NCBI GenBank assembly: GCA_043826435.1
Contig: JBDRQF010000011.1
Location: 7,025-71,024, forward strand
Reading direction: 5' to 3'
Origin: Elusimicrobiota bacterium
GTDB lineage: Bacteria; Elusimicrobiota; Endomicrobiia; CG1-02-37-114; JAHJSO01
Length of the DNA: 64,000 nt
In this document: in pieces, positions 27,812-64,000 of the stretch
How positions within the stretch are numbered: position 1 is the first letter of the stretch
Layout of the letters: each line of letters opens with the position of its first letter
Translations under genes and position numbers: made by a program
The notes under the pieces: model-generated
The model's input: the letters and a program-made list of their open reading frames with translations, nothing else
What the model was told of the DNA's origin: nothing
Database searches by the model: none

Positions 27812-27826
27812 TTATTTATCCGCCGT

Positions 27827-28378: not shown

Positions 28379-28390
28379 GTTTTTTGCTCT

Positions 28391-28945: not shown

Positions 28946-28961
28946 TGTTTTAACCCGGGCA

Positions 28962-30494: not shown

Positions 30495-30539
30495 TATTTT
30501 TCTCCTTTTATTAAATTATACATTTTTTATGTTTGTAAA

Positions 30540-31643
30540 TCAAATAAAATTTATATGTATTGGGGGTTCACCTTTTGGTTTTTCCAAGGTGGTATTTCCG
30601 TGTTTTAAGTCCCACAAAAACTCATTTACCTTATGTTGAAGGCAAAGAGTCCCACACATTGTTTTAGCATCAAAATTATCTAAAGCAATAAAATTCATAA
30701 CCTCCCAATAGCGTTCGCTGCGCCATATCTCTTTAAAAGATTTATCTACAATGTTACCAATGTGATATCTTTTATACTTTCTGTTGAACAACATACCACA
30801 AGGAGCAACAAGTCCTGAACCAGAGAATTGGGTAATAAAAGGTGGGCCATAACATTGGGAATATTTACGTTTCCCTTCACTCAAGATTTTTGACCATTTC
30901 ACTTTCACTAAGTAGCCCTCATCAGAATATCCTTCCGCTTCTTTTAAAACATTAACCAATTCAAAATATTTAGAGTAATTTACTCCTAAACTACCTTTTT
31001 CATCATCACTGCAATGCTTAATGATTGAATAATCAACTCCCAGTTCCTTGCCAAGTTTAGCAAAAGGTATAATCTGGCCGACAAATTGAGGGAGTAAAAC
31101 CATCTGTAAACCCAAAGTAACAGAAAGATTTTTTTCTTTTTTTATTCTTACCGCTTCTTTTATAGTGTTAAGTACTTTATAAAAATGTTCTTCCTTGCAT
31201 CCCATTATTTGAGAATAACGGAGTGGCTCCGCAGCAGAAATATTAAATCTAAGATATGTTAAACAAGGCAAAATTTCTTCTAATTTTTCATCTTTTAATA
31301 AATAGCCGTTTGTTCCCAATGCCATATCCAGTCCATTTGCTTTGCCTCTTAATATCGCATCATATAAATGTGGCGAACAAGTGCTTTCGCCGTCACTGAC
31401 AAAACTTATTGCTTTCACACCAATTTCAGTAGCATCGTCAAGGAATCTGAAAATTACATCTTTTGTCATTCTCTTTTCGTCGTTTGTTTGTAGTTGGCCA
31501 TAGCAATAAATACATCTGTAGGTGCACCTTCTGGTCAGTGAACAATCTATGGTTATAGGAGCAATTCTTTCGCCTCTAAGCCATGCCTCTATTCTATCTG
31601 TATGCCAGAGCATTTTATGACCATCTAAGATTAATTCGTCCAT
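30540..31643 (-). CDS. Radical SAM domain protein (no B12 domain), sugar-modifying candidate
   Basis: CSLTRRCTYRCIYCYG CxxxCxxC motif near the N-terminus, plus C-terminal extra cysteines (possible auxiliary cluster). 367 aa. Confidence 0.8.
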   Translation of the reverse strand: MDELILDGHKMLWHTDRIEAWLRGERIAPITIDCSLTRRCTYRCIYCYGQLQTNDEKRMTKDVIFRFLDDATEIGVKAISFVSDGESTCSPHLYDAILRGKANGLDMALGTNGYLLKDEKLEEILPCLTYLRFNISAAEPLRYSQIMGCKEEHFYKVLNTIKEAVRIKKEKNLSVTLGLQMVLLPQFVGQIIPFAKLGKELGVDYSIIKHCSDDEKGSLGVNYSKYFELVNVLKEAEGYSDEGYLVKVKWSKILSEGKRKYSQCYGPPFITQFSGSGLVAPCGMLFNRKYKRYHIGNIVDKSFKEIWRSERYWEVMNFIALDNFDAKTMCGTLCLQHKVNEFLWDLKHGNTTLEKPKGEPPIHINFI

Positions 31644-31649
31644 ATGTAT

Positions 31650-32429
31650 TTATCCTTTATTTAATGCTTGATAACGCTTTGCCGAGACGGAGTCAGGATT
31701 AATAGTTTGTCTTTCTTTCTTAAAATAAATGTGTGTAAACAATAGAAAAAATCCCTTTATTACTTTATAAAAAGAATGAAAGGACAATGCTTTTGACTTA
31801 CCCTCCTTTCTTAGTTTTAATCTGTAAGGAACTTCTGCAAAAAGATATTTTCTCTTGATTAATCTTATCAAGATATCAGTTTGATAAAAAAAACCGCTAT
31901 TCCTATGTTCCATCTCACTTAATAATGATTTTCTGTAAAGAACAGTTCCATTAGTATAGTTTAGCGAGACAAAAAAGGTATTATTTATAACAAGTTTATA
32001 AACAAACGAAATAAAGTTTCTAAAAAAAGAACGTGTCCCTTTATTAAAAACAAAAGGAATAACTATATCAACATTTTCTAGAAGGTAAATATAACGAAAA
32101 ATTTCTCCGGGCTCATTTTCATTATCCCCCGGTAACATACAAACTATATTTCCTTTTGCATTATCTACTCCATCCCAGAAAGAAGCGCCAAGTCCTTTTG
32201 GTTTGTTATGGTTAATCATTCTAACTTTTTCAGGATTTTCTTCCATTTTGCGTTGTATAATATTAGGAGTTGTATCAGAACTCCCGTCATTAATTACAAC
32301 TATTTCGCCTTTTATCCCAAACTCCCCAAACGCAGATAGAGTATCATCAATAGATGAGGAAATATTTTTTTCTTCATTGAGCGCGGGCATTATAATAGTT
32401 AAAAATATGCTATCGGTTTTATTCGCCAT
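31650..32429 (-). CDS. Glycosyltransferase family 2 (DPM-synthase-like)
   Basis: LTIIMPALNEEKNI...IVVINDGSSDTT DXD-region GT-A signature. 259 aa. Confidence 0.8.
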   Translation of the reverse strand: MANKTDSIFLTIIMPALNEEKNISSSIDDTLSAFGEFGIKGEIVVINDGSSDTTPNIIQRKMEENPEKVRMINHNKPKGLGASFWDGVDNAKGNIVCMLPGDNENEPGEIFRYIYLLENVDIVIPFVFNKGTRSFFRNFISFVYKLVINNTFFVSLNYTNGTVLYRKSLLSEMEHRNSGFFYQTDILIRLIKRKYLFAEVPYRLKLRKEGKSKALSFHSFYKVIKGFFLLFTHIYFKKERQTINPDSVSAKRYQALNKG

Positions 32430-32435
32430 TTTCAG

Positions 32436-33485
32436 TTATTTTTTTAAAAGTTTTTTTATTTCAAAAACTATATTTTCAACATTTGGATAATAAATTTTTT
32501 CTAAAACAGAACTCGCGGGTGTAGGAATATCGGGCAGTGCTATTCTTGATACAGGTGCTTTTAGAAATTTCAGAGCATTTTCCATCAAAAATGAAGAAAT
32601 TTCAGAACTAATTCCGCAAAATTTATAACCAAAATCTAAAACAATCGCCCTTTGCGTTTTTTTAACTGAACTTAGAATTAAATCATAATCAAGAGGCTTT
32701 ATTGTTCGCAAATCTACGATTTCAATATTTATCCCTTCGTCCTCAAGTCTTTTTGCTGCTTCTATTGCTAAGATTGTCATAAATGAATTGGTGATTAAAG
32801 TTAGATCTTTTCCCTCTTTTCTTAATACAGCTTTTCCTAAGGGTATTAAGTAAGGATCCTTTGGGACTATATCCTTATAGTCATAAAGCCATCGGTGTTC
32901 AATAAAAATTACAGGTGACTCATCCAGAATGCTTGACAGTAGCAATCCTTTTACATCATAAGCAGTGGAAGGCATAACGACTTTAAGTCCGGGGACATGG
33001 GTAAATAAAGATTGAAGAGGTTGAGAATGTTGTGCAGCAGACCCCCAGCCACCACCTATTATTGCCCTTACTACAATGGGAACAGATGCTTTCCCACCAA
33101 ACATATATTTCCACTTTGCAGCATGGTTTATTAACTGGTCCATTGATAATAGCATGAAGTCAGTCCTCATGTGAACCAAGACGGGTCTCAACCCTGCCAG
33201 AGAAGACCCAATAGCAATTCCTGTTAAAGTATTTTCACATAAGGGCGTATCAAACACCCTATCACTGCCAAATTCTTTATGAAGATTTAAAGTTGTTCCA
33301 AAAGTTCCGCCGGGGTCATCAACTCCTTCTCCAAATATAAAAACCCTCTTATCTTCTTTTAATGCTAGATACAATGCTTCTTTAATAGCTTCCCTGTAAC
33401 TGATTTCCCTCTCTTTTTTAGACCCTGTTTTCCGAGTGGAAATTTTTATTTTAGATAAATCTATTGGTGCTTTATCCCAGGACAT
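32436..33485 (-). CDS. TPP-dependent 2-oxoacid dehydrogenase E1 beta subunit / transketolase C-terminal-like
   Basis: 349 aa with the ...FGEGVDDPGGTFGTT...FDTPLCENT... motif typical of PDH/acetoin-DH E1-beta. Paired with an E1-alpha just upstream. Confidence 0.85.
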   Translation of the reverse strand: MSWDKAPIDLSKIKISTRKTGSKKEREISYREAIKEALYLALKEDKRVFIFGEGVDDPGGTFGTTLNLHKEFGSDRVFDTPLCENTLTGIAIGSSLAGLRPVLVHMRTDFMLLSMDQLINHAAKWKYMFGGKASVPIVVRAIIGGGWGSAAQHSQPLQSLFTHVPGLKVVMPSTAYDVKGLLLSSILDESPVIFIEHRWLYDYKDIVPKDPYLIPLGKAVLRKEGKDLTLITNSFMTILAIEAAKRLEDEGINIEIVDLRTIKPLDYDLILSSVKKTQRAIVLDFGYKFCGISSEISSFLMENALKFLKAPVSRIALPDIPTPASSVLEKIYYPNVENIVFEIKKLLKK

Positions 33486-33487
33486 AG

Positions 33488-34447
33488 TCAGTAAACATCC
33501 TTATATAGATCTTTTTCTTGAGGATAAGGGCTTTTCAGAGCAAAATCCAGCGCTTCCTCTATCTCTTTTTCTACTTCTCCGTCTATCTGTTTAAGGTCTT
33601 TTTCTTTAAGTAGATTATTTTCCAGGATATATCTTTTGAATTTTTCCAGGGGGCATTTCTTTGTCCATTTTTCAACTTCTTCTTTTTGTCTGAATCCTTT
33701 CTCTACATCTGTTTCAGGACCAACATGAGTTCTCCATCTATATGTTCTTGTTTCAATCAAAGAAGGACCTGAACCATTTCGTGTTCTCGCTATAAATTTT
33801 TTGGCTGTTTTGTGTACCTCAAATACATCATTTCCGTCAATGCAAATACCTGGCATGGAGAAAAAATCCGCTATCTTATAAATGTCAGTATTCACCTGTC
33901 TAACTTTTTGAAGAGAGTTTGTTGCATAAAAATTATTTTCACATACAAATATTATAGGCAACTTCTTTAACGAAGAAAAATTAAGAGATTCATAAAAAAC
34001 ACCTTCATCAACTGCCCCATCGCCAAAAAATGCTATAACAATTCTATTATCTTTCTTTATTTTAGAAGCCAATGCCGATCCAACTGCAATAGGTATTCCC
34101 CCGCCCACAATTGCAGAAGTTCCCAATATAGAATGTTTAACAGATATCATATGCATTGAACCACCTTTTCCGGACGAACAGCCAGTTTTTTTTCCATAAA
34201 GTTCTGCGAATAAAGGTTTTAAATCCACACCTTTGGCAATTAAATGACCGTGGTTTCTATGATTACTGAAGACATAATCTTCTTTTTTTAAGTTGATGCA
34301 AAAACCCACAGCAATAGCTTCTTGACCTATATATAAGTGAACAGGGGTGCACATATCCTGTTTTGGGTAAATTTGAATTATCTTCTCTTCAAATTTTCTA
34401 ATTTTTGTAAGGTAGTAATAAATTTTTTTTAATGTATCAGATGTCAT
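33488..34447 (-). CDS. TPP-dependent E1 alpha subunit (thiamine diphosphate-binding)
   Basis: GDGAVDEGVFYESLNFSSLKKLPIIFVCENNFYA TPP-binding GDG...N motif. 319 aa. Confidence 0.85.
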   Translation of the reverse strand: MTSDTLKKIYYYLTKIRKFEEKIIQIYPKQDMCTPVHLYIGQEAIAVGFCINLKKEDYVFSNHRNHGHLIAKGVDLKPLFAELYGKKTGCSSGKGGSMHMISVKHSILGTSAIVGGGIPIAVGSALASKIKKDNRIVIAFFGDGAVDEGVFYESLNFSSLKKLPIIFVCENNFYATNSLQKVRQVNTDIYKIADFFSMPGICIDGNDVFEVHKTAKKFIARTRNGSGPSLIETRTYRWRTHVGPETDVEKGFRQKEEVEKWTKKCPLEKFKRYILENNLLKEKDLKQIDGEVEKEIEEALDFALKSPYPQEKDLYKDVY

Positions 34448-34467
34448 ATCTCTTTATTATATAAAAT

Positions 34468-35583
34468 CTAACCGGAAAAATCAAGATAAAATTTTCTTAT
34501 TTTATCAACGATATAGTCCAGTTGTTTTTCTGTCAATTCAGGATAAACGGGCAAACTTAAAATCTCTCCCGCCAGACGTTCGGTTACGGGAAAAGCGCCT
34601 TTTTTATATCCTAACGGTTTAGCCGCCCTCTGCATATGTATGGGCAGCGGATAGTGGATTTTTGTTTCAATCCCGTTTTTTGCAAGGTAGGTTTGAAGCC
34701 GGCCCCTCTTTTCTGCCCGGATTATAAAAGTATGGTAAACACATTTTTCATGGCTGTTTTCTTCCGGTGTTTTTACGAATCCATTCATGTCAGATAAATT
34801 TTTTATATAGTATTTTGCAACCTTTCTTCTGCCTTCAATCCATCTGTCCAGATATTTAAACTTAACATTGAGTATTGCCGCCTGCATAGTATCAAGCCGG
34901 CTGTTATACCCCCACTGCGGAGATTCATTTCTGTTTTTTAATCCGATGTTTCTGAGTCGGATTAATTTTTGGTATAGTTTTTTATCGCCTGTCGTGATGA
35001 AACCCCCGTCACCGCAGGCATTCAGTGTTTTTAATGGATGTAAACTGAAACAGCCGAATGTCCCGAATGAACCCACTCTCTTTCCTCTGTATTCTGCGCC
35101 GAGTGACTGTGCAGCATCTTCAATAATATACAGGTTGTATTTTTTTGCTGTTTCCATAATCGGGTGCATGTCCGCTGTCTTTCCTGTTAAATGCACCAGA
35201 AGGATTGCTTTTGTTTTCCGGGTGATTTTTTCAGATATAAGGTCCGGGTCAATATTCATATCTTCCCGGACATCTACAAAAACCGGCTTTAGCCCTGCTG
35301 TGATTATGCTTGAGGTTGTAGAGAGAAAGGAGTTTGGGACCGTAATAACCTCATCGTCATCTTTTAACCCTAACGATTTCATCGCAAGAAAGAGTGCATC
35401 AGTTCCTGAGTTGACCCCGACAGCGTATTTTGTATCGCAGTAGTGCGCCGCCCTTTGTTCAAACAGCGAGACCTCTTTGCCGAGAATAAAGTCGGCCCTT
35501 TCAAGGGTTTTTGAAACCGCCGCGAGTATCTCTCTTTTCAGTTTTTTATGCTGGGCTTTCAGGTTTATGTAAGGTATTTTCAT
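34468..35583 (-). CDS. DegT/DnrJ/EryC1/StrS family PLP-dependent sugar aminotransferase (copy 1)
   Basis: 371 aa aspartate-aminotransferase-fold family. FSLHPLKTLNACGDGGFITT contains the conserved lysine region. The ...GVNSGTDALFLA... N-terminus is typical. Confidence 0.85.
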   Translation of the reverse strand: MKIPYINLKAQHKKLKREILAAVSKTLERADFILGKEVSLFEQRAAHYCDTKYAVGVNSGTDALFLAMKSLGLKDDDEVITVPNSFLSTTSSIITAGLKPVFVDVREDMNIDPDLISEKITRKTKAILLVHLTGKTADMHPIMETAKKYNLYIIEDAAQSLGAEYRGKRVGSFGTFGCFSLHPLKTLNACGDGGFITTGDKKLYQKLIRLRNIGLKNRNESPQWGYNSRLDTMQAAILNVKFKYLDRWIEGRRKVAKYYIKNLSDMNGFVKTPEENSHEKCVYHTFIIRAEKRGRLQTYLAKNGIETKIHYPLPIHMQRAAKPLGYKKGAFPVTERLAGEILSLPVYPELTEKQLDYIVDKIRKFYLDFSG

Positions 35584-44521: not shown

Positions 44522-45958
44522 TTATGCCCCGCCCGACTTTTTAAAAATTTTTACCGATTTAATTAATTGCAAGTTGAACCTTATCATTTCGCCTGTTTTC
44601 ATCCTGTACAATTTGAATACGTAGTTGTAAAGATAGATTACGGAGAAAATAGCGTCGTATATAAAGGTGAGCGGCAGTTTAATCAGAATCTTTATCAACG
44701 GGAACAGCCGGGGGAACCGCGCGGCTATCAAAAAAAATTTCTGCAGGTTGACGAGTTGCCTTATATTATCCTGCTTTATGACGCTCCGTTTCAGATAGAA
44801 CTCGGGGATACTGTCAAGGTTAAAACCGTCCTCAACAAAACCGTTCCGGATTGCAAAATCCCCTGCCTCGGTCCCGGGGTATGGGGTAAAAATAGAACAC
44901 CATGGATATGTTGATTTTATCTTCTGGTTGAGGGTTACCGTCTCATACGCCTCTTCAAGCGTTTCCCCCGGCAGGCCCACCATGTTGAATGTTTTAAATT
45001 CAATACCGTATTTGCGCAGCAGGTCGGCGGTATTGGTAATCTGGTGGTTTGTGATATTTTTCTTTAGCACGTTTTGTCTTATTAATTCATTTCCGTGTTC
45101 AATGCCGAATGATACGGCAAAACAGGAACTCATTTTTAACTCCCTGACAATTTCTTCGGTTACCAGGTTCGCCCTCAGGTTGCAGTGGAACGGCAGGTTT
45201 ATGCGTTTGCGGTATAACTCAAGAAACTTAAACAGCCAGGATGTGTTCAGAATAAACGTGTCGTCATGAAAATGGACCCGTTCAAGCGGCCGGGTTCCCC
45301 TGTATTCTTCTATTTCGTTTACGACGTTCTCCGGGCTCCTGTACCTGACATATTTCCCTTCCTGCAAAGTTGATGCCGCCCGGTTAAAACAGAAACTGCA
45401 CTTATACGGGCAGCCCCTTGAGGCGATGAAGAAAGCCATTGTGCTTTTTCTGAAATAGGTATATCTGTCATAGTGCGAGCGGTCCGGGAACGGCAGGGTG
45501 TTAAGATCACCTACAAGAGGCCTTGTATTGTTTGCGATAATCCTGCCGTCTTCTTTTGTTGAAAGGTTTAATATCTTTTTTATTTCTTTGCGTCCGTCTA
45601 TGGCGTCAAGCAGTTCCAACGTTGCGAGTTCCCCTTCACCCCTGCAGATTATATCAACCTGCGGTTTTTCCAGTACAGGCGGATAAAATGTCGGGTGCGG
45701 GCCGCCGAAGACCGTCAATATATTTTTGAACCTCTCCTTTATCGATGCGGATACGTTCAGCGTCCACCTGTGCGCCCCTGTGATGCAGTAAAAACCAACC
45801 ACGTCGGGCGAGAAATTTTTAACCTCGTCAATAATTTTGCGGGTGTCGGGCTCAATGATTATCCTGGATTCGTGTCCCTTTGATTTCACGTAGGACGAAA
45901 TCCACATCGGGCCCGCCAGGTCAACCCATATATTCTGGACAAAAATTATCCTTGCCAT
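44522..45958 (-). CDS. B12-binding radical SAM protein (copy 2)
   Basis: Cobalamin-binding domain (...VFGGPHPTFYP...) plus SRGCPYKCSFCFN. 478 aa. Confidence 0.85.
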   Translation of the reverse strand: MARIIFVQNIWVDLAGPMWISSYVKSKGHESRIIIEPDTRKIIDEVKNFSPDVVGFYCITGAHRWTLNVSASIKERFKNILTVFGGPHPTFYPPVLEKPQVDIICRGEGELATLELLDAIDGRKEIKKILNLSTKEDGRIIANNTRPLVGDLNTLPFPDRSHYDRYTYFRKSTMAFFIASRGCPYKCSFCFNRAASTLQEGKYVRYRSPENVVNEIEEYRGTRPLERVHFHDDTFILNTSWLFKFLELYRKRINLPFHCNLRANLVTEEIVRELKMSSCFAVSFGIEHGNELIRQNVLKKNITNHQITNTADLLRKYGIEFKTFNMVGLPGETLEEAYETVTLNQKIKSTYPWCSIFTPYPGTEAGDFAIRNGFVEDGFNLDSIPEFYLKRSVIKQDNIRQLVNLQKFFLIAARFPRLFPLIKILIKLPLTFIYDAIFSVIYLYNYVFKLYRMKTGEMIRFNLQLIKSVKIFKKSGGA

Positions 45959-51088: not shown

Positions 51089-51964
51089 TTATCGGTTCCC
51101 CTTAAGCATCCGGGTGATTTTCAGCACAGGCATCTTCCACAGTCGCAGGATGGCAGCGAGAATTATCCATGCAATAATGCCGTAGTGTTTCCTGTAGTAA
51201 TACAAGAAACTGTTGTCAAATATCTTTTCTTTTTTTTCTCTGCCAAGTTTATCCATGGACACGCCCCAGTGGTGTATGACCTGTGCATCTGCAACAAAAA
51301 AAATCTTCCAGCCATGTTTTTTTATTTTATGACACCAGTCAATTTCTTCAAAATACGCAGTAAAATTTTCGTCCAACAATCCCACCTGTTGAATAACTTC
51401 TTTTCTAACCAGCAGGCAGGCACCACTGACCGAATCAACTTCTCTTGTGTCTTCCCTATTCCAGTCAAAAAGTGTGCGGTTTTTCTTAACAATATTATTC
51501 GGAAATAAAGTATTCAATAGACCGACCTCAAACAGCCCCCATAAAAATGTTGGAAATTTTTCTCCTGACCACTGGTGTCGTCCTTGCCGGTCAATCAATT
51601 TTGGACCACACGCTCTGCAACGCAATTCAGTGTCCATAAAATTGACCATCCTGCCGAGTGCATTATCTAAAATAACAGTATCAGGATTTAATAACAACAG
51701 ATATCTCCCGGTAGAATTTTTTAGTGCCTGATTGTGGGCTTTTGTAAAAAAGAAGTTTTCCTGATTGACAATCAATTTCACATCCGGAAATTTTTGTTTA
51801 AGCATCTCCGCACTTCCGTCCCCAGATGCATTATCAACCACTATAATTTCGTATTTGATGTTTTTTGTATTTTGATAAATGGAAGATAAGCATTCTTCTA
51901 AAAATTTTTTTGTATTGTAGTTTACAATTGTAATTGATAAATCAAGCATTGCCTTTGGACCCAA
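51089..51964 (-). CDS. Glycosyltransferase family 2
   Basis: LSITIVNYNTKKFL...IIVVDNASGDGS GT-A signature. 291 aa. Confidence 0.8.
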   Translation of the reverse strand: MGPKAMLDLSITIVNYNTKKFLEECLSSIYQNTKNIKYEIIVVDNASGDGSAEMLKQKFPDVKLIVNQENFFFTKAHNQALKNSTGRYLLLLNPDTVILDNALGRMVNFMDTELRCRACGPKLIDRQGRHQWSGEKFPTFLWGLFEVGLLNTLFPNNIVKKNRTLFDWNREDTREVDSVSGACLLVRKEVIQQVGLLDENFTAYFEEIDWCHKIKKHGWKIFFVADAQVIHHWGVSMDKLGREKKEKIFDNSFLYYYRKHYGIIAWIILAAILRLWKMPVLKITRMLKGNR

Positions 51965-52643
51965 TATCGGTCAAAACAAAAATAAACTGGTACCCGAAAA
52001 GTGTCGGGCAAAGAGAATAAATTTTTTTAAGAAATTTCCAGCCACCAGGTATTCTTAAAAATACTCCATGAAACCTTGGAATACCTTTATCGGGGTCAAT
52101 AGATAAGTGTTCTATTTTTAGCCCAGATGACTCAATCATTTCTTTTGCTGTCTTCAAAGTAAAAAATCTCAGATGTGTATTGTCCAGAATCCCATAGTCC
52201 TCATAATCAAATTTGCCAAAAAGCAACCGTACTCTAATTGAGAAGTGAGCAATATTTGGCAGTGTGATTATTACACGCCCCGCGGGAGCCAGAAATTTTT
52301 TTATTTTTTGCAGCACTCCCAGAGGGTTTACTAAGTGTTCCAATACATTCATACACAGGATAAAATCAAATTTCCGGTCTATTTGCTGAAGTATTTGTTC
52401 ATTTTCAATGTTTCCCACCAGTATTTTCTGATAATATGGCTTTGCCATTTCTGCCGAGTCAGGGTCAATTTCAACTCCCCAAGACTCGCAGTTCACTTTT
52501 TCTTTCAGGTATTTTCCGATATAACCGGTGGCACACCCGATTTCAAGTACTTTGGAATTTGGTTTGACTAATTTTACTACCTGATAGTCAGTCCACAACG
52601 GACAGATTTTATCTATATCATAATTTTGGCGATGGTATTTCAT
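51942..52643 (-). CDS. Class I SAM-dependent methyltransferase
   Basis: VLEIGCATGYIGKYL (motif I) and DFILCMNVLEHL (motif II). ATGA overlap with the downstream small ORF. Confidence 0.8.
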   Translation of the reverse strand: MKYHRQNYDIDKICPLWTDYQVVKLVKPNSKVLEIGCATGYIGKYLKEKVNCESWGVEIDPDSAEMAKPYYQKILVGNIENEQILQQIDRKFDFILCMNVLEHLVNPLGVLQKIKKFLAPAGRVIITLPNIAHFSIRVRLLFGKFDYEDYGILDNTHLRFFTLKTAKEMIESSGLKIEHLSIDPDKGIPRFHGVFLRIPGGWKFLKKIYSLCPTLFGYQFIFVLTDIGSKGNA

Positions 52644-53070
52644 TGTTTTGTTTCTAATGCTTCGTCTATTTTACTAATCAAGTATTCAAAATTCTTATCA
52701 GAGTAATATTTCCGCATTCCTGCTTCAAGAATTGAACCAAGTGCGACCCTATAGTCGGTTATCTTGAATGATTTTATTATATTTTTTATCCTGATTAAAT
52801 TTTCTTTTTTTGTATTCAGGGGTATCCCCCGCCTCAATAAAAATTCTATATCAAAACAATCTCTGACCTCACCCCTGTTTAAGAATGTCTCTATTTTGTT
52901 TTTCATCATTTGTTCAAGTGTTGCACTTCCTTATTGAACTTGGGAGTTTAAATAAGTCATTTTATCAATGTTTGTTAGTTAACAATTTTGTTAACTAGTT
53001 ATACTTAATAATTTTTTAATTGTCAATACCCTTTTGAGATAATGTCGTAATTTTGGCGATGGTATTTCAT
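52622..53070. repeat. 22-bp perfect direct repeat (AATTTTGGCGATGGTATTTCAT) at 52622-52643 and 53049-53070, flanking a ~427-bp segment
   Basis: Both copies include the TGA/ATG (tcat) overlap. The second copy encodes a vestigial MKYHRQNYDIISKGY* reading frame that duplicates the methyltransferase start. Confidence 0.7.
52640..52909 (-). CDS. Hypothetical 89-aa protein carried on a ~427-bp insert
   Basis: ORF only, with no recognisable motif. It lies inside a segment bounded by 22-bp direct repeats. Confidence 0.35.
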   Translation of the reverse strand: MMKNKIETFLNRGEVRDCFDIEFLLRRGIPLNTKKENLIRIKNIIKSFKITDYRVALGSILEAGMRKYYSDKNFEYLISKIDEALETKQ

Positions 53071-53975
53071 CGTTTAACCGTCCTCAGAATTTCTTCTGCC
53101 CGGTGGTCATAGGTGTGTTTTAAAACAACTTCTCTATGTCCTGTCAGAGCAATCTCCTCTCGTTCTGTTTCGTGTTTCAGGTAATAGTCAATTTTTTCCA
53201 ACAGGTCATTCCCATTATCATATAAAACCAGATGTTTTTTATCTTGGAAAAGTTCTTCCAGTCCTGCTTCCAGTTTTAACCGGTCAGTGATAAGTAAACT
53301 TCCACAAGAAAGCGCTTCGAAAACACGCATATTCAAATCACCCCTTATACTTTTATTGAAAACTATCTTTGCTTGACTATATATTTTAGCCATATCTTCA
53401 CCGAATATTCCTGGAAATACTTGGATATTAAATTTCTGACCAATCAATTTTAACAATGTAACTCTCTCTGGATAAACCATAGGATTGGTGTTACCTACAA
53501 ATACAACATCATAAATTTTGGGCAATTCATATTTTCTATGTATTTCGTGGTCACATGCAACTGGCAACCATTGACTACTATTCCCAAATTTGCACATATA
53601 GTTTTTATGGCAGGAGAAAACATAAGAAAAATCGTTTTTTAAATAGGTGTGAAATTTTATTTTATCTGGTTCATGGGTATCTAATGACCATAATATCGCA
53701 GGGATACTAAGTTTGTTGAATCCTATTAGATGATATTGGCCAGCGGAATCAACTTCAACAATAATGTCAAACGATTTTTTCATTTTTTTTATCACCGATT
53801 GAACATAAACAGGAAGACCTTTAGGAATAAAAAATGGTAGATGGTTGTATAAATTAGTCCAGTATGGCGTTTTACCCAAATCAAAACTTTCCACAAAATG
53901 TTTTTTTCTTAATGCTTTTTCTAAATACATTCCAGTTGTCCAGGGAATTTTATTATATGCCAGAAATATGTTCAT
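53067..53975 (-). CDS. CgeB-like / GT-B C-terminal-domain glycosyltransferase candidate
   Basis: 302 aa. The C-terminal region (VFVGN...ERV..L...G..VFPG..., FEALSCGSLLITD) resembles the CgeB/GT1 C-terminal domain. Confidence 0.45.
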   Translation of the reverse strand: MNIFLAYNKIPWTTGMYLEKALRKKHFVESFDLGKTPYWTNLYNHLPFFIPKGLPVYVQSVIKKMKKSFDIIVEVDSAGQYHLIGFNKLSIPAILWSLDTHEPDKIKFHTYLKNDFSYVFSCHKNYMCKFGNSSQWLPVACDHEIHRKYELPKIYDVVFVGNTNPMVYPERVTLLKLIGQKFNIQVFPGIFGEDMAKIYSQAKIVFNKSIRGDLNMRVFEALSCGSLLITDRLKLEAGLEELFQDKKHLVLYDNGNDLLEKIDYYLKHETEREEIALTGHREVVLKHTYDHRAEEILRTVKR

Positions 53976-55543
53976 TTTTTTATTAAATCTGCTCTTTGTT
54001 TACAGTTTTGGTATTCAACAATTTCCCTGATTTTGTCTTCAACACATTCATATCTTAATTTTGTATCCGATAAAACTTCAGCCAAAAAAAGTTTATTTTT
54101 TTCTGCAAGTTTCAAGTAATTATGCAAGGTTAAACTTCTTAGTTGTCTATGAAATTCTGTATGCAATCTTTCTAAATCTAAAATACTAAAACTTTCAGTT
54201 CCAATCAGTGAGGTGCCAGATATGAGTGACCTATAATTTTCGTTTTCAAGTGAAACTTGCAGATAATTTTTTTCTTTACATATTTGATATAACTTTGTTC
54301 CAACATATGGCATAGCAATATGAATATAAGGATAAACACCATATTTTTCAAGCATCTCTAAAGTAAAATCTATAGTTTGTTTAATATTGTCAATGGTTTC
54401 TCCAGGAAATCCAAAAACATAGAATGCTCGTAGGTCTATACCTAAATCTTGACACCATTGAGCACACTGAATAACTTTTTTCAAATCCAGTCGTTTGTGT
54501 ATTATTTTATCAAGTACACCTTGATTGCCTGATTCAACTCCTATAATAAGATATGTACATTTAGATTTTTTTATTTTCTTCAAAATTTCTAAACTAAGAC
54601 CGTCGGCTCGCAATCCATTTGGTGTATCCCAGGTAATCCCTGAGTTAAGATGAATTATGCCGTCAACTATTTTCTCAAATCTTTTAATGTCAATATTGAT
54701 AGTGTCATCCTCAAAGTGTATGTGTTTTACGTCGTACTCTTCGGTAACAAATTTGATATAATTTAAGACATACTTTGCAGAATGAGGTCTCCATTTTCTG
54801 CCCATATGTAAATGCACAGAACAAAAAATACAATTATAAGGACAACCTCGACTTGTAATCATTGGAATACATCTTTCCGAACCAGGATAATTATATCTGC
54901 CTCTTATTTCAAATCCAAGTTCTTGTGCTTTGAAATATTTCTCCAACCGGATGAGATGATATGCAGGATAAGGTAAATCGTCTAAGTTTGAAATTGGTTC
55001 ACGGATTCCGTTATTTATGATTTTACCGTCCATACTACGATAAGTAATTCCTTTAATTTTTTGCAAAGATTTTTTACCATTATAGGCATCAATTATATCT
55101 AATATAACATATTCTCCTTCTCGCATAACAACAATATCAATAGCGTTTGATAACTTCAAAAAAGATTCCGGGCAAACAGAAGCATGTGGTCCACCAACTA
55201 TAGTTAGGATATTTTTATTGGCTGATTTCACAACTTCTGCTACTCTTACAGCATTAAATATTTGTGCACTAAATTGATTGGTAATGCCAACAACATCGGG
55301 GTTTTTATGTTGAATAACTTTTTTTAATTCAGTTATCCAATGTTTCTCTACAAATTCTTTATTTGCGTATGTATTTAATAATTTATGGTCAGCAAAATCT
55401 ACTCTTGCATCAAAAACTTCTACTTGATAACCATTTTTTTCCAACACACCGGCTATGTAAAGAATCCCTAACGGTAAATCCAATTGAAATCCTCGTAAAT
55501 TTTCACCATAACTTGAAGGCGGTCTGACAAGAAGTATTTTCTT
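53972..55543 (-). CDS. B12-binding radical SAM protein (copy 3)
   Basis: MKKILLVRPP...PLGILYIAGVL cobalamin-domain N-terminus, ...GGPHAS... and SRGCPYNCIFCSVH. Start is likely the internal MKKILLV. Confidence 0.85.
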   Translation of the reverse strand, partial: KKILLVRPPSSYGENLRGFQLDLPLGILYIAGVLEKNGYQVEVFDARVDFADHKLLNTYANKEFVEKHWITELKKVIQHKNPDVVGITNQFSAQIFNAVRVAEVVKSANKNILTIVGGPHASVCPESFLKLSNAIDIVVMREGEYVILDIIDAYNGKKSLQKIKGITYRSMDGKIINNGIREPISNLDDLPYPAYHLIRLEKYFKAQELGFEIRGRYNYPGSERCIPMITSRGCPYNCIFCSVHLHMGRKWRPHSAKYVLNYIKFVTEEYDVKHIHFEDDTINIDIKRFEKIVDGIIHLNSGITWDTPNGLRADGLSLEILKKIKKSKCTYLIIGVESGNQGVLDKIIHKRLDLKKVIQCAQWCQDLGIDLRAFYVFGFPGETIDNIKQTIDFTLEMLEKYGVYPYIHIAMPYVGTKLYQICKEKNYLQVSLENENYRSLISGTSLIGTESFSILDLERLHTEFHRQLRSLTLHNYLKLAEKNKLFLAEVLSDTKLRYECVEDKIREIVEYQNCKQRADLIKK

Positions 55544-55605
55544 CATATATCCATTTATCTTTTTTCGCAAAAAATTACCTCGTTAATCTATTTTGTCAGG
55601 GTGGT

Positions 55606-56358
55606 TTAATCCTGATCACAACCTTGTTTAGAAGCAACTGTAATAAAAACACTTCCGTACATGAAAGAAATTGCTCGTTTATCAATTAAAGCAATAAACC
55701 TTTTTACAAAATCCTTAATTTTATTACCAGTAAGAGGAATTTTAGGAACTAATTTGCAAAATTCTACTTTAAGCCCACTTTCAGTAAGAATTCCTTTCAT
55801 CTTTTCCTCATCAAACGATGCTAAATGTTCTGAAGGAGGAAAAACAGCATAACAATCCGGACAGACAACTTTTTGAATATTTTCTTTATAGGGAACAGTA
55901 ATTATAACTTTCCCCAACGGCTTTAGAACTCTTTTTATTTCTTTAAGCCCTTTTTCAAGAGTGTCCGGCAAAAGATGTTCTAATACCTCAGTCACAAACA
56001 CATAATCAAAAAAACATGTCACAAGCGGCAAATTTGTTATACTCCCCTCTTTAAGAATAATATTTTTATTTAAAGAACTAAATTTTTCTTTTAGACTTTT
56101 TATATTTTGGCGAGAAACATCACATCCATAGACTTCAAATCCTATATTATAAAGTTCATCCATAAGTGTCCCTATTCCACATCCTATATCAAGGGCCTTT
56201 CCAGGCAACCTAAAAAACTTTTTTACATTTTTAATAACACATTTATAAAAATCTGCTGGCAAAAACATACCTTCAGAGAGTTCCGGCAATGTTTCATACA
56301 TTTCCCATAAACTTTTTATTTTTTCTTCGGCCCATTCTACTTCGTGAATTTTTTTCAT
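55606..56358 (-). CDS. Class I SAM-dependent methyltransferase
   Basis: ALDIGCGIGTLMDEL (motif I) and DYVFVTEVLEHL. C-terminal CPDC suggests a small Zn-ribbon-like insertion. Confidence 0.8.
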   Translation of the reverse strand: MKKIHEVEWAEEKIKSLWEMYETLPELSEGMFLPADFYKCVIKNVKKFFRLPGKALDIGCGIGTLMDELYNIGFEVYGCDVSRQNIKSLKEKFSSLNKNIILKEGSITNLPLVTCFFDYVFVTEVLEHLLPDTLEKGLKEIKRVLKPLGKVIITVPYKENIQKVVCPDCYAVFPPSEHLASFDEEKMKGILTESGLKVEFCKLVPKIPLTGNKIKDFVKRFIALIDKRAISFMYGSVFITVASKQGCDQD

Positions 56359-56385
56359 TTACCGGAGGCCCCCTTAACTATCTTT

Positions 56386-56526
56386 TTAAAACTTTATGAG
56401 ATGCCTGTTTTCAAGGACGGCTGCGAGATATAACAGCCCGAGCGGAGGCAGGTAAGAGCCGACTTTTGTAAGCCCACCGTACCTCTCTTCCCCTAACATA
56501 GGCGGAAAAACCAGAAGTATTTTCAT
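56386..56526 (-). pseudogene. Remnant N-terminal fragment (46 aa) of a B12-binding radical SAM gene
   Basis: Minus-strand translation MKILLVFPPMLGEERYGGLTKVGSYLPPLGLLYLAAVLENRHLIKF* matches the conserved N-terminus of the B12-rSAM paralogs (MKKILLVRPP...PLGILYIAGVL). The fragment is GC-richer than its flanks. Confidence 0.6.
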
Positions 56527-56530
56527 GGCG

Positions 56531-57541
56531 TTATTTGTTTTTGAAGTAAGATTTATACCAGGCGATTGTTTTTTTGAGACCTTCTTTTAATGAATATTTT
56601 GCCTTCCAGCCCAGCGCCCTCCTTGCTTTTTCAGATGACAGGTATTGTGCATGTATTTCTGTAAATGGCTTGTCTTTGCCAAGTATTCTTGGCCTGAGTG
56701 TTGACCTGCGATGGAGAGAAATCAGCATTTTAACCAGGTCTAATGCCGTTATTGGTGTTTCACAACTGAAGTTGAATGCATCGCCCCTGACTTCCGGTTT
56801 TTTGACAACTTTTTCCGCCAGGGTTAAATATGCCGAGACAGCATCTTCAATATAAAAATAGTCCCGCACAGGAGTTCCGTCAGAGCGGATGATTGGCGCC
56901 TCATTGTGAATTAAAGAACGGATAGTGCCGGGGATTATTCTTGACCAGTGAAAATCGCCGGGTCCATATAGATTGCCGCACCTGGTTATCGCAATAGGCA
57001 GGTTAAAGGCGTGAAAGTAAGCTTTTGCAAGTGTTTCGGCACATACCTTTGAAGCATCGTATGGATAGAACCCCACCAGGAGATAGTCCTCTTTATATGG
57101 AAGTTTTTTGTGTTCCCCGTACGCCTTATCACTGGAAGCAATAACAACCGATTCAATAGTCCTGCATTCCCGTGCGGATTCCAGGACACACCATGTTCCT
57201 TTTATGTTTGTTTCAAATGTATTTAAGGGAAAGTTTTTTGCAAACGACTCAACTGCCGTAGCGGCCAGATGGAAACATACCTGAATTTCATATTCATTTA
57301 AAACTCTTTTAATAATCGGGTGGTTGGTAATTGAACCCGGAACAATTGATATTTTTTTGTCATAGCTCCCCAGGCAGAGTAGTGAAACAGGAATATAATC
57401 ATTGCTGATCCCTACAATATTTGCTCCTTTTTTGAGGAGATATATTATAATATTTGATGCCAGAAATCCGTAGCAGCCGGTTACGAGGACATTTTTTCCC
57501 CGCCAGAAGTTTTTGTTGGCTTTCATTTCATTTACCTCCAT
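56531..57541 (-). CDS. NAD-dependent sugar 4,6-dehydratase-like SDR (CDP-glucose 4,6-dehydratase-like)
   Basis: NFWRGKNVLVTGCYGFLASN resembles the RfbG N-terminus (FW.GK.V.VTG.TGF). YDASK catalytic motif. 336 aa. Confidence 0.75.
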   Translation of the reverse strand: MEVNEMKANKNFWRGKNVLVTGCYGFLASNIIIYLLKKGANIVGISNDYIPVSLLCLGSYDKKISIVPGSITNHPIIKRVLNEYEIQVCFHLAATAVESFAKNFPLNTFETNIKGTWCVLESARECRTIESVVIASSDKAYGEHKKLPYKEDYLLVGFYPYDASKVCAETLAKAYFHAFNLPIAITRCGNLYGPGDFHWSRIIPGTIRSLIHNEAPIIRSDGTPVRDYFYIEDAVSAYLTLAEKVVKKPEVRGDAFNFSCETPITALDLVKMLISLHRRSTLRPRILGKDKPFTEIHAQYLSSEKARRALGWKAKYSLKEGLKKTIAWYKSYFKNK

Positions 57542-58229
57542 AAAATTTCCACCGCAGTATATTTTTCAGCATCTGAAAACTTGCAGAAAGTTTTATGTGT
57601 GAATTTCCTTTTTCCCTTTTTTGAAAACTGAGGGGAACCTCTGACATTTTGGCTCCGAGAGATGAGGATTTTATAATAAACTCAGAATCAATAAACCAGT
57701 CCTTTGACACAGGAGATATTTTTTCATAAAGAGACCTGGTAAAAATTTTTGGGTTGCTGCCTATGTCTATCGACGGATTGGGGAAGAAAAACTGAAATAG
57801 TATATTAAATATTTTTGAATTTATCTTTCGGAGAAATCCATCCTCTCGGGTTATCCTTTTACCCTGGGCAAAATCAAGCCCTTCCTCTTTTATTTTCTTA
57901 AATACCCTGACTACATCTTCGGGTTTTATCTGGCCGTCTCCTGCCATGTAGCCAACATATTTTCCAGTGGCAGATTTTAGTCCCTGTATTACTCCCCAGC
58001 CATAGCCCTGGTTTATTTCAACGGTTACAACTTTTATTTGCGGATATTTGCCTGCTAATTTTTTCAGGAGTTCGGGTGTTCTGTCGTAAGAGCCATTGTT
58101 GACCGCCACGATTTCATAATGGATGCTATGTTTTGTGAATTCATTTGAGAGGTCTCCGCAGACCTTTTCCACATTTTCTTCTTCGTTGTAGAAAGGAATA
58201 ACTATAGACAAATCAACCGAAGGGATCAT
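57528..58229 (-). CDS. GT2 polyprenyl-phosphate glycosyltransferase (DPM synthase/GtrB-like)
   Basis: LSIVIPFYNEEENV...VAVNNGSYDRT...INQGYGWG. 233 aa. Confidence 0.8.
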   Translation of the reverse strand: MIPSVDLSIVIPFYNEEENVEKVCGDLSNEFTKHSIHYEIVAVNNGSYDRTPELLKKLAGKYPQIKVVTVEINQGYGWGVIQGLKSATGKYVGYMAGDGQIKPEDVVRVFKKIKEEGLDFAQGKRITREDGFLRKINSKIFNILFQFFFPNPSIDIGSNPKIFTRSLYEKISPVSKDWFIDSEFIIKSSSLGAKMSEVPLSFQKREKGNSHIKLSASFQMLKNILRWKFYGGK

Positions 58230-59035
58230 TTTGATTTTTCTCGCCGGGAAATTTTTGAAATATTTAACCTTATTCGGACAAGGTCTCTGAGAATTTTTAA
58301 GAATTCCCTGCGGGGATTGAGCCGTGTGTCAAAATCGCATGACCATTTTAAGGGAAATTCTTTTATGGTGTATCCGAGTCGTTGGGCTATTGACAGGACT
58401 TCAACATCAAAAATGAAGCCGTTTATTTTTTGCTGACTGAGAATTTTTTGGGCTACTTCTTTTTTGAAAAATTTGAAACCGCATTGTGTATCCACTATCC
58501 CCTTAATGTTAACGATTGCTCTTGTAATGGAAGCGAATATCCTGCCGGAAATCGTTCTATAGAATGGTTGCTTTATAACTATTTCCGACTCGCTTAACAG
58601 CCGTGAGCCGATTGCAATATCATATCCGTTTTCTAAAAAATTTATGCCCTTTTCTGTTTCATGAAAAGGAACGCAATATCCAGCGTCAACAAAAAGAATA
58701 TATTTGCCGGTTGCCTGTAAAACCCCAGTTTTCACTGCATAACCTTTTCCTTTGTTTTCAGGATAACTTACTATTTTTAAATTTTTGTGGCGTTCTTTGA
58801 TTTTTGTTAATATATCAAGTGTTTTGTCTTTGCTCCCGTCGTTAACGATTATTATTTCAAAATTATATGTTTGTTTATTGAAATACTCGTATAGCAGTTT
58901 TATGTCTTTCTCTATTTTGTTTTCCTCGTTGTAAGACGGGACTACAACCGAAAGATAAATATCATGCTCTGGTTTCATATAATCGGGCATTTCACGATAA
59001 TCCTCTCTGTAACCCCTACACTGAAAGGGATACAT
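58226..59035 (-). CDS. GT2 polyprenyl-phosphate glycosyltransferase (DPM synthase-like), tandem paralog
   Basis: LSVVVPSYNEENKI...IIIVNDGSKDKT...NKGKGYAV. 269 aa. Confidence 0.8.
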   Translation of the reverse strand: MYPFQCRGYREDYREMPDYMKPEHDIYLSVVVPSYNEENKIEKDIKLLYEYFNKQTYNFEIIIVNDGSKDKTLDILTKIKERHKNLKIVSYPENKGKGYAVKTGVLQATGKYILFVDAGYCVPFHETEKGINFLENGYDIAIGSRLLSESEIVIKQPFYRTISGRIFASITRAIVNIKGIVDTQCGFKFFKKEVAQKILSQQKINGFIFDVEVLSIAQRLGYTIKEFPLKWSCDFDTRLNPRREFLKILRDLVRIRLNISKISRREKSK

Positions 59036-61259: not shown

Positions 61260-62681
61260 TCATCCTTTCGCCTCTGTTTTTTGTTTCATTATTATTTTTT
61301 TAATAAGAAGGAAGTCATCAATTGTTAATAGTCTGAGTGATATAATATATACGGCAAATACAGGGATGGACACGCTTAAATGGGACAGAAGCCCGGTTAT
61401 TATACTTAAGGATAAACCAAGTAAAAGTAGCAGGTTTGTTTTTATGAGAGGTATCTTATATTTTGATATTACTATGGTTATTATTATTGTCTGGATTGTT
61501 AAACCGGCAATCGCGCTGATGGCGGGACCTGTGGATTTAAACGCCGGTATCAGCCAGAAGTTTAATGAAGTGGAAATGATGAAATAGATAAAACCCGCGG
61601 CTATAACCAGGAACGGCCTGTTTATCGAGTAGAAAAATGGGCCGAAGAACGCCTGGAGCCCGAACAAAAAAAGAGTAAATGAATATATTTGAGTAACCTT
61701 TATACTTTCAGCATAAACATTGGTGAACAGTAGGGGAATTATTTTATCGGCGAAACTGAAGATCACAAGGGATATAAAACCGAATGCAATGCCGAGCGTC
61801 TTGCTGCCGAATTGGACGATTTTTTCCTTTGTTTCTACGGTGTCGGGATGTGAAAAATAATACAGGAACGGGACAGGGAGAGATGCGAGCGATAATGATT
61901 CTATTAACTGGGGGACTCTCAGTCCGGCAGAGTAATAACCGACATCAACCGGGTTTTTTAACAGAACCCTTAGCATCACATAGTGCAGTGTTGTTAATAA
62001 GATAAATAATATTTGTCCGACAAACATTGCGAGTCCGAAATTGAATATGTCTTTCCTGATATTCAGGTTGGTGAAGCCAAGATTTTTCCTTATGAATACA
62101 AAATTTATTGCTATAAAGAACAACATTACGAAAAACATGTTGTATATGACGGTTTTAAAACTGTTTGATATAAGGACGATAATTATTATTGAGATGGCCC
62201 GCCAGAAAAATTCATAAGCGCCCTCCAGTATGGACCATTTCAGGAATTTGCCCAGTCCGCGGTAAACCCCCTGGAATATGTTTATAAAAGCATAAAGCAG
62301 TATAAGAAACAGGAATATATTTTTAATTTCCCTGATTTCAATCGGGTACAATTTTGGGAACTTATTTATGCTGAATACAAAAAACAGCGAGAATAGGAGG
62401 AAAGCGATAAAGGTTATTTCAAATGACTGGGAACAAAGATTTTTTTTCTCGTTTTGATTGTTTATTTCGGGCAGGAATCTTGAAAGCGTGCCGGAAAAGC
62501 CGAAACTCAATAACAACCCGATGGTTACTATCAGCTGGGTTACAAGTGAAAATCTGCCATATTCGTCCGGCCCAAGGAGCCGTACCACAAAAATAGACAG
62601 AAATCCGGACAATACCTGAAAAAATATCTTCAATACAAAATATTTTGAACTGGAATGAAATATTTCGGAGTATTTTGACAT
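61260..62681 (-). CDS. Wzx-like oligosaccharide flippase (MOP superfamily, polysaccharide biosynthesis protein family)
   Basis: 473 aa with about 12-14 TM helices. The N-terminus VLKIFFQVLSGFLSIFVVRLLGPDEYGRFSL is typical of PST/Wzx-family exporters. Confidence 0.7.
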   Translation of the reverse strand: MSKYSEIFHSSSKYFVLKIFFQVLSGFLSIFVVRLLGPDEYGRFSLVTQLIVTIGLLLSFGFSGTLSRFLPEINNQNEKKNLCSQSFEITFIAFLLFSLFFVFSINKFPKLYPIEIREIKNIFLFLILLYAFINIFQGVYRGLGKFLKWSILEGAYEFFWRAISIIIIVLISNSFKTVIYNMFFVMLFFIAINFVFIRKNLGFTNLNIRKDIFNFGLAMFVGQILFILLTTLHYVMLRVLLKNPVDVGYYSAGLRVPQLIESLSLASLPVPFLYYFSHPDTVETKEKIVQFGSKTLGIAFGFISLVIFSFADKIIPLLFTNVYAESIKVTQIYSFTLFLFGLQAFFGPFFYSINRPFLVIAAGFIYFIISTSLNFWLIPAFKSTGPAISAIAGLTIQTIIITIVISKYKIPLIKTNLLLLLGLSLSIITGLLSHLSVSIPVFAVYIISLRLLTIDDFLLIKKIIMKQKTEAKG

Positions 62682-64000
62682 TACTTGTTATAGGGGACTT
62701 TTTTTATTAACGGTGACACCAGTTGTTTCTGCCTGCCGACAAACTTTATTAAACGGCTCAAACCCGCCGCCAACCCGTATAGGTTTAATCTGATAAAAAT
62801 CCTGAACAAGTTTCCCAACAGTTTATTCGCTATTTTTTCAAGACGTTCTCTCCCGCCTAAAAAATTCTTAAAACTTTTTGCATCTAGCCAGGTTGCGACA
62901 TAAGCCATTTCTTTTACAAACTCAAATTTTTTGCTGTCGTCCTGCAGCCATGGATAAAGTTTTGATTCCCACGCCTCATAATCAAATTTGACCCAGTCCT
63001 CCATTTTTTCAGGGGGCTTAAATCCATACTGTTTCGCAACCTCAAACAATTCCATCCCGGGATACAGGGTGACCATCATCAATTGTGTTATGTAGGCGGA
63101 CGGATTGTCTTCAAGCAGCCGGTTAATCAGTTTAATTGTTAATTTCACGTCCTCTATGGTTTCCGTCGGGAACCCTGCCATGAAGCCGAACCTTGCCGTG
63201 ATTCCGACTTCCCTCAATTTTTTATTTACTTCAATCACCTGTTCCACCGTTATGTCTTTTTTTATGTCATTTAGTATCTTTGCCGAGCCGGACTCTACCC
63301 CGATGTATATTTCAACAAAACCGGCTCTCTTAAGCAGTTTCAGGTAATCCATGGAAAAACAATAAAGGTAATTCGCCCTGCAGCCACTGGTAAGTTTTAT
63401 TGAAATGTTTTTTTCGATGATAAGCCCACATATTTCCGTCGCACGGTCAAAATCGGCAAAAAAATTGTCATCCAGTAACTGGATCGTTGATATTTCCGGG
63501 TTTTTGACTAAATATTCAATGTGGGGCAAAACAGATTTCGGTTCTATTGCCCGGTGTTTCCTGAAATTAAACGCAACGTTGTAGCAGAAACCGCACCTGT
63601 GCGGGCAACCTCTGCTGGTAAAAATTGGGAACAGTCCGTTAATTATATAATCGTTGACGTTTATCAGACCATAATTCGGTATTGGAGATTTATTGAGATT
63701 TGCAAACCCGCAGGGCTGATTTACAATAATTTTGCCTTTTTCCCTGTATCCAATCCCCTTCATCTTTTTGATGGCTTCAGGGTTGCCCAGGTTTTTAAGC
63801 AATTCAACGAACGTTTCTTCACCGTCGCCGATAACAACGTAATCCACAAATTCATTTTGCAGCGTGTCGTCGGGCATCAGGGAAGGGTGTACACCCCCTA
63901 AAATGACAGGAATGGCACTGTCAATAGTTTTTATGAATTTCGCTACTTCAAGGGCGGATTTAATCTGATAACCGCTCATGGCGCTCAGCCCCACGGCGTA
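62681..64000 (-). CDS. B12-binding radical SAM protein (copy 4; N-terminus runs off the window)
   Basis: ...PVILGGVHPSL... cobalamin-domain motif and TSRGCPHRCGFCYN. The frame is open through position 64000. Confidence 0.8.
   Translation of the reverse strand, partial: YAVGLSAMSGYQIKSALEVAKFIKTIDSAIPVILGGVHPSLMPDDTLQNEFVDYVVIGDGEETFVELLKNLGNPEAIKKMKGIGYREKGKIIVNQPCGFANLNKSPIPNYGLINVNDYIINGLFPIFTSRGCPHRCGFCYNVAFNFRKHRAIEPKSVLPHIEYLVKNPEISTIQLLDDNFFADFDRATEICGLIIEKNISIKLTSGCRANYLYCFSMDYLKLLKRAGFVEIYIGVESGSAKILNDIKKDITVEQVIEVNKKLREVGITARFGFMAGFPTETIEDVKLTIKLINRLLEDNPSAYITQLMMVTLYPGMELFEVAKQYGFKPPEKMEDWVKFDYEAWESKLYPWLQDDSKKFEFVKEMAYVATWLDAKSFKNFLGGRERLEKIANKLLGNLFRIFIRLNLYGLAAGLSRLIKFVGRQKQLVSPLIKKVPYNK

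Follow-up and report, generated by a model that had tools for sequence, protein, structure and literature searches.

The window analyzed here is a 64-kb stretch of Elusimicrobiota DNA, in which a 172-bp gap (56359-56530) separates two genes of the minus strand, being bounded by the stop of a gene for an NDP-sugar 4,6-dehydratase-like SDR (56531..57541, stop at 56531) and by the start, at 56358, of a gene for a class-I SAM methyltransferase (MTase, 55606..56358). The gap contains an ATG-initiated ORF of 46 codons and a TAA stop codon (56386..56526, minus strand), hereafter called the stump. Its translation, MKILLVFPPMLGEERYGGLTKVGSYLPPLGLLYLAAVLENRHLIKF, is exactly the 46-aa peptide that the first-pass annotation of this DNA had read from the gap, and the same sequence is present in the protein collection as the NCBI entry ABIJ11_01920, where it is annotated as a hypothetical protein. 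The ATG of the stump lies 4 nt past the SDR stop, and its own stop lies 27 nt ahead of the MTase ATG. The 27-nt spacer (56359..56385, minus strand) carries two more in-frame TAA codons and the Shine-Dalgarno sequence AAGGGGG of the MTase, bringing the number of in-frame TAA codons between the stump and the MTase ATG to three. Stops abound in the other two frames. With all frames of the gap checked, neither a frameshifted continuation of the stump nor a read-through fusion was found.

Upstream of the SDR, two GT2 glycosyltransferase genes (57528-58229 and 58226-59035, minus strand) belong to a conserved GT2-GT2-(SDR)-rSAM module, where rSAM denotes a B12-binding radical SAM protein. The best NCBIfam model for the SDR is that of CDP-glucose 4,6-dehydratase, which scores below the cut-off (199 bits vs 278). 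An exact-sequence look-up of the SDR ORF as delimited here gave no match, the deposited model of this gene starting 5 codons later (331 aa). Downstream of the stump, the MTase is the first gene of a 3.3-kb block of low GC content, followed by the gene of a B12-rSAM protein of 524 aa (P0153, 53972..55546, minus strand) and by a Glyco_trans_1_2 gene (here GT-like, 53067..53975, minus strand). On the far side of this block lies another MTase gene (51942..52643, minus strand).

The stump is homologous to the N-termini of intact B12-rSAM proteins. Pattern scans of genome and metagenome collections recovered 48 loci encoding relatives of the stump, and these scans and tblastn show it to be 71-82% identical to residues 1-45/46 of intact proteins of 464-466 aa. 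Comparison of the gap with the intact orthologs by blastx gave 80% identity over 45 aa (E = 7e-22), covering 56526->56392, and an exhaustive HMMER search gave 304 matches at E <= 0.001 among 1.84 billion representative proteins. Many of the latter are full-length proteins of ~455-490 aa aligned at residues 1-60, the best match being a protein of 469 aa (E = 8e-24). A B12-rSAM N-terminus had been recognized at this position in the first-pass annotation, which named a lack of significant similarity in a proper alignment as the outcome that would speak against it; the similarity found by blastx, tblastn, and HMMER is highly significant. Pfam, applied to the 46-aa peptide alone, could not by itself decide the homology, because the match to PF02310 is below threshold (E = 0.026, 14.8 bits vs a cut-off of 32.1, profile positions 5-27/121). 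The closest match among the window's own rSAM proteins is the product of 53972-55546, with 47% identity over 38 aa only.

The closest relatives that are not cut by a contig end are ORFs of 464-466 aa (L004/L020, L005, L008, L009, L010/L027, L011, L022, L028, and L029), the exception being the gene of L021, which encodes 426 aa and has both domains present. In the orthologs, the B12-binding domain spans ~20-135 (PF02310 positions 5/6-119/121) and the Radical_SAM domain 203-360. None of them reaches an NCBIfam equivalog cut-off (244-250 bits vs 577.6 for HpnJ and 234-235 vs 481 for BchE), and they thus constitute an uncharacterised class-B rSAM subfamily. The intact relatives come from other Elusimicrobia and from Desantisbacteria. 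Full-length homologs with N-termini 46-66% identical were also observed in DPANN (Nanobdellati) and Thermoplasmata archaea (L006, L007, L012-L019, and others), such that the subfamily spans bacteria and archaea. In two loci (L018:10001-11331 and L042:10001-11331), the rSAM gene is split by a frameshift, with the remainder in another frame; the L018 gene is 97-98% identical to that of L015. These two may be pseudogenes or sequencing errors.

Of the protein described above, the stump has kept ~27 residues of a B12-binding domain that measures roughly 116, and the radical SAM core is missing altogether. Neither the complete PF02310 domain (~120 positions) nor the PF04055 core with its [4Fe-4S]-binding motif is found in it. 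According to the PF02310 alignment, the segment would correspond to a single strand-helix-strand piece of the Rossmann-like domain. With a partial B12 domain and no radical SAM core, the stump is unable to bind cobalamin or to catalyze, and it would have no residual function. The part that it does retain shows it to be descended from a class-B rSAM protein. The rest of the lost gene was not found elsewhere in the window, either by tblastn with three of the window's rSAM proteins or by blastx of all 12 intergenic gaps.

The gene order of the orthologous loci matches that around the stump. The order GT2-GT2-SDR-intact rSAM occurs in at least seven independent loci (L008, L010/L027, L011, L029, and L057/L058), and L059 has MTase-GT2-GT2-SDR-rSAM, where the contig ends within the rSAM and the SDR is 63% identical to that of the window. 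Among SDR homologs with usable context, those of L057/L058 and L059 are the closest. The SDR orthologs that directly precede an rSAM gene are 47-63% identical to 56531-57541, the SDR being the conserved upstream partner of the lost gene. For L008, L010/L027, L011, and L029, the identities are 47-57% for the SDR, 51-60% for the GT2 corresponding to 57528-58229, and 39-43% for the one corresponding to 58226-59035, the latter being a short fragment in L011 and lying further upstream in L029. In L057/L058, the order is GT2-GT2-SDR-rSAM (465 aa)-PMT-EamA, with an SDR 60% identical to that of the window, and the rSAM N-termini of these loci and of L059 are 70-72% identical to the stump. A GT2 followed by the intact rSAM is found in L004/L020 and L022, and likewise in L023 and L024, where the rSAM is cut by the contig end.

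Two of these loci, L004 and L022, share genes with the window to either side of a variable middle part. Upstream, these are a flippase, PMT_2 (52-60%), an MTase (60-69%), and the GT2-GT2 pair, and downstream a GT2, a GT4 (64-66%), and another GT4, to which L004 adds AsnB (68%). The intact rSAM sits between the two shared stretches. In L022, an MTase with the start MKYHRENYN... lies 9 nt past the intact rSAM and is 59% identical to the product of 51942-52643; it is likely that the latter gene was the original downstream neighbor of the lost rSAM. Judged by gene order, the stump occupies a position at which many independent lineages have the orthologous gene intact, and the replacement is on the downstream side only. 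The upstream SDR, GT2, GT2, and MTase genes, which the first-pass annotation had counted among the acquired cassettes, are instead conserved syntenic partners across Elusimicrobia and Desantisbacteria.

A further locus, L060 (Logan SRR32194794), has an SDR 60% identical to that of the window with a convergent PMT_2 directly after it, and neither an rSAM nor a stump, which indicates that the rSAM is dispensable, or has been cleanly lost, in some lineages. A search via the SDR for a closer relative gave nothing above 63% identity, and the ancestral state therefore rests on distant synteny. The same search returned no close relative of the window's lineage with an intact rSAM, as a result of which the event is undatable and a replacement is inseparable from an insertion followed by a deletion.

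At the nucleotide level, alignment with seven orthologs shows homology from the ATG to codon ~45-46 and random identity afterwards. Since the homology ends at this codon, neither the TAA stop nor the 27-nt spacer lies before the junction, and the spacer, which is without homology to the orthologs, is probably part of the incoming cassette. The loss of homology is abrupt and coincides with a change of sequence origin, and relatives carry an intact ortholog at the same position, both of which are as expected for a gene remnant.

The change of origin is seen in the base composition. The GC3 of window genes outside the low-GC islands is typically 0.53-0.60, and that of the stump is 0.52 (GC 0.47), followed by 0.40 (GC 0.41) for the SDR, 0.28 for the GT-like gene, 0.21 for the rSAM gene at 53972-55546, and 0.20 (GC 0.31) for the MTase at 55606-56358. 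The GC3 of the stump does not fit that of the downstream block (p = 1.6e-6, binomial), is compatible with a native value of 0.55 (p = 0.77), and is indistinguishable from that of the SDR (p = 0.13). The earlier statement that the stump is GC-richer than both of its flanks is thus correct for the MTase side and does not hold for the SDR side. In relatives of low GC content, too, the N-terminal segment exceeds its locus by 5-9 GC points (0.42/0.33 in L004, 0.33/0.27 in L009, and 0.42/0.37 in L022), showing that the GC excess of the stump comes in part from its amino-acid composition.

With respect to selective constraint, the stump has mismatches at 4 of 31 near-invariant columns of the orthologs (K18G, A20T, A22V, and V44I), compared with 0-2 in 13 other sequences, suggesting that the constraint on it may be relaxed. 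Its mean dN to the orthologs is 0.20, which, though high, is within the range of the intact genes (0.10-0.22). The synonymous sites are saturated (pS ~0.8), and dating of the event by dN/dS was dropped for this reason.

The second gene of the low-GC block, P0153, is only ~30% identical to the lost type of rSAM. Its closest non-self homolog, P0154 (77% amino-acid identity), is found in L052/L053, where the rSAM gene is likewise paired with a GT-like gene, and the DNA of these loci is 78.5% identical to the window across 55541-53094, that is, over the rSAM and GT-like pair only. The whole 21.6-kb L052 locus has 32% GC and GC3 values of 0.19-0.30, compared with a background of 47-49% GC for the genome of the window. 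Given this low GC and the DNA identity, the block looks imported from a low-GC lineage. No donor with the full order MTase-rSAM-GT-like-MTase was found, L052/L053 sharing the rSAM and GT-like pair only.

At the other end of the block there is a second stump of 15 codons (53023..53070, minus strand; MKYHRQNYDIISKGY, followed by a stop), whose start overlaps the stop of the GT-like gene in an ATGA. The start of the MTase at 51942-52643 recurs in its first 10 codons, as part of a 34-nt direct repeat (53023-53075 and 52615-52648) that is 91% identical and in which the two differences in the coding part are synonymous. The second gene-start stump is the mark of the far edge of the low-GC block. The segment between the repeat copies (52640-53040) contains a promoter-like TTGACA-17-TATAAC and a perfect 22-nt palindrome, TAGTTAACAAAATTGTTAACTA. 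It also contains an ORF of 89 aa (52640-52909) that weakly resembles AbiEii toxins at their C-terminus (Pfam E = 0.043, below any threshold) and has no match in NCBIfam. This ORF may be what is left of an inserted toxin-antitoxin module or of another small insertion.

On the basis of these results, we consider it highly probable that the 46-codon ORF is the surviving, non-functional 5' end of a class-B rSAM gene (~465 aa), the body of which was replaced by the low-GC block. The ancestral order would have been SDR-rSAM-MTase, with an MTase of the 51942 type and with the rSAM closing a GT2-GT2-SDR-rSAM glycan-modification module; the rSAM-MTase arrangement is still present in L022. Recombination, either as one replacement or as an insertion and then a deletion, would have removed codons ~47-465 and joined the stump to the 3.3-kb block from a low-GC lineage, comprising the MTase, a different B12-rSAM, and the GT-like gene. 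The incoming DNA would have ended just inside a homologous MTase start. The stop codon at the junction, located in AT-rich sequence without homology to the orthologs, would also have come from the incoming DNA. The proposal of the first-pass annotation, namely a B12-rSAM relic whose body was deleted or replaced upon the arrival of AT-rich DNA, is fully borne out by the orthologs found at the same position and by the break in both homology and composition at the stop.

We have also considered the possibility that the stump was retained by selection for a role in cis, in which reinitiation would aid the expression of the acquired cassette through coupling or protection from polarity. The ORF is open over its 46 codons and its ATG is 4 nt away from the SDR stop, and the stump may well be translated by reinitiation past this stop. 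Consistent with a cis role, there is no terminator-like site between the SDR and the MTase, and the stump is invariant across four assemblies. These assemblies are, however, nearly clonal (0-9 SNPs over 3.6-6.7 kb), which makes the invariance uninformative with regard to selection. Moreover, the calculated Shine-Dalgarno pairing of the stump is +2.0 kcal/mol (rank 52 of 55 window genes), that is, essentially none, whereas that of the MTase at 55606-56358, located within the 27-nt spacer, is -10.2 kcal/mol (rank 3 of 55). With such a strong site of its own, the MTase has no need of the stump for coupling, and the suggestion in the first-pass annotation that the stump provides a translational-coupling start is unlikely. 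In addition, the other stumps described below (61 aa in L001-L003 and 42 codons in L046) end at other points, their contexts are unrelated, and in one case the neighboring gene is convergent. A selected role in cis is therefore improbable.

Scans for promoters and terminators around the gap gave no more sites than in shuffled sequence. A riboswitch or structured RNA in the gap was considered as well and was rejected, there being no Rfam match to the gap and a z-score of only -0.55 for its RNA folding.

Also improbable is a more general scenario, in which the conserved 5' ends of class-B rSAM genes would be preferred breakpoints or deliberately retained 'landing pads' for the swapping of glycan-modification cassettes in uncultured bacteria, with the stump translated by reinitiation to carry ribosome traffic and transcription into the acquired genes. 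Independent N-terminal stumps were found three times among ~50 loci (in the window, in L001-L003, and in L046). The search was able to find N-terminal pieces only, and these numbers hence do not amount to an excess of 5' pieces.

That the stump represents a genuine small-protein family of 46-61 aa, derived from the N-terminus of the B12 domain and with a function of its own, is very unlikely. The stump is annotated by NCBI as a protein, and a complete relative of 61 aa (P0002), 76% identical to it, is encoded in three metagenome contigs, L001 (ENA ERZ27266656), L002 (JGI 3300033521), and L003 (ENA ERZ27267211). These two were, however, the only short proteins that a word-indexed search found among 5.8 billion, they differ in length, C-terminal tail, and flanks, and every other close relative is 464-466 aa long. 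A small-protein family, to which the result of this search had pointed, was overturned by the pattern scans and HMMER, which found the intact orthologs. Between about -30 and codon 59, the DNA of P0002 is 83-87% identical to the intact L021 gene, and past codon 59 the two are unrelated, which identifies P0002 as an independent truncation. A convergent gene follows it. Upstream, L001/L002 and L003 differ completely beginning ~15 nt ahead of its ATG, showing that this stump, too, lies at a point of rearrangement. A predicted lone strand-helix-strand piece of a Rossmann-like fold likewise argues against a protein with its own function.

A third true N-terminal stump, of another B12-rSAM subfamily (L048 type), is found at L046:1824-2024 (SDBT01010807.1). 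It consists of 42 homologous codons and then an unrelated tail, and no remainder of its rSAM gene was found anywhere in the 11.9-kb L046 locus. The stumps thus differ in length, tail, and context, which is at odds with a conserved small-protein family, and no short homologs of similar length in a conserved context were found. An intact homolog of only ~46 aa, which the first-pass annotation had named as a finding that would overturn its reading, did not turn up either, the lone short relative being the truncated P0002.

An assembly artefact, that is, a chimeric MAG contig joining two populations within the conserved 5' region of an rSAM gene, would fit the sharp GC3 step exactly at the junction and the conservation of B12-rSAM 5' ends, which is sufficient for mis-joining, but it can practically be dismissed, since the junction recurs in three independent assemblies of other runs, all of which span it, namely L054 (Logan SRR26275510, 100% identity over 6707 bp), L056 (Logan SRR6514730, 100% over 3602 bp), and L055 (ENA ERZ27247117, 99.86% over 6505 bp, with 0 differences in the stump). 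All 9 differences between L055 and the window fall within 65 nt (window 58885-58949, in the GT2 gene at 58226-59035), a pattern resembling a small tract of recombination, or else a hypervariable patch, within a population that is nearly clonal.

It is worth mentioning here two other features of the window. There is a second low-GC island at 24000-35000, in particular at 30540-34447, where four consecutive genes have GC3 values of 0.24-0.28 against a background of ~0.55; this island is probably a further import into the same large glycan locus. The window also encodes four intact B12-rSAM paralogs (26321-27811, 44522-45958, 53972-55546, and 62681-64000), which are 27-31% identical in the pairs compared and lie among glycan-biosynthesis genes that run in one direction over 64 kb. 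The fourth paralog runs off the end of the window, and the ORF list gives a GTG start at 63994.

The preferred reading of the stump as a gene remnant has some practical consequences. ABIJ11_01920 is better labelled a pseudogene fragment than a hypothetical protein. Within an uncultured phylum, the locus provides a clean, well-bounded case of a cassette being replaced in a cluster for glycan biosynthesis: one cobalamin-dependent rSAM was exchanged for a non-orthologous one along with an MTase and a GT-like gene. The comparison of the loci also defines a conserved GT2-GT2-SDR-rSAM module, which may be a candidate for biochemistry.

Compared with the class-B rSAM enzymes (PF02310 and PF04055, with HpnJ and BchE as the nearest NCBIfam models), the stump corresponds to the N-terminal beta-alpha start of the B12 domain, but it is without ~90% of the protein, including the CxxxCxxC core. 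As both defining domains are missing, it is a descendant of this family and not a functional member of it. The module to which the lost gene belonged would be analogous to the Arn-type modification of lipid carriers with sugars, in that it combines GT2, GT2, SDR, a PMT_2 transferase, and EamA (L057), which would be ArnC-like (GT2), ArnA-like (SDR), ArnT-like (the GT-C transferase PMT_2), and ArnE/F-like (EamA). Arn systems, to our knowledge, do not include a B12-rSAM.

The diversification of surface glycans by block exchange has long been known from enterobacterial O-antigen and capsule loci, and gene remnants at block junctions are a well-known feature of polysaccharide gene clusters. The present results indicate that block exchange of surface-glycan genes operates in Elusimicrobiota too. 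In the Salmonella O-antigen groups B1 and D1, remnants of different lengths of the same wzy gene have followed different degradation paths, and another wzy gene substitutes for it functionally (PMC3715488). Gene remnants were also found in nine E. coli O-antigen clusters and were read as a sign of a relatively recent genetic event (PMC7685785). Like these remnants, the stump is a short fragment of a biosynthesis gene that no longer functions, sitting where two blocks of unlike origin and GC content meet within a hypervariable glycan locus. The parallel with wzy extends to the same gene being degraded independently to different extents in different lineages, with a functional analogue as the substitute. 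The differences are that the host is an uncultured Elusimicrobiota MAG, that the lost gene is a class-B rSAM rather than wzy or a glycosyltransferase, and that the junction in the window shows no IS or H-repeat element. The stump is accordingly an ordinary gene remnant at a cassette junction rather than a new kind of element.
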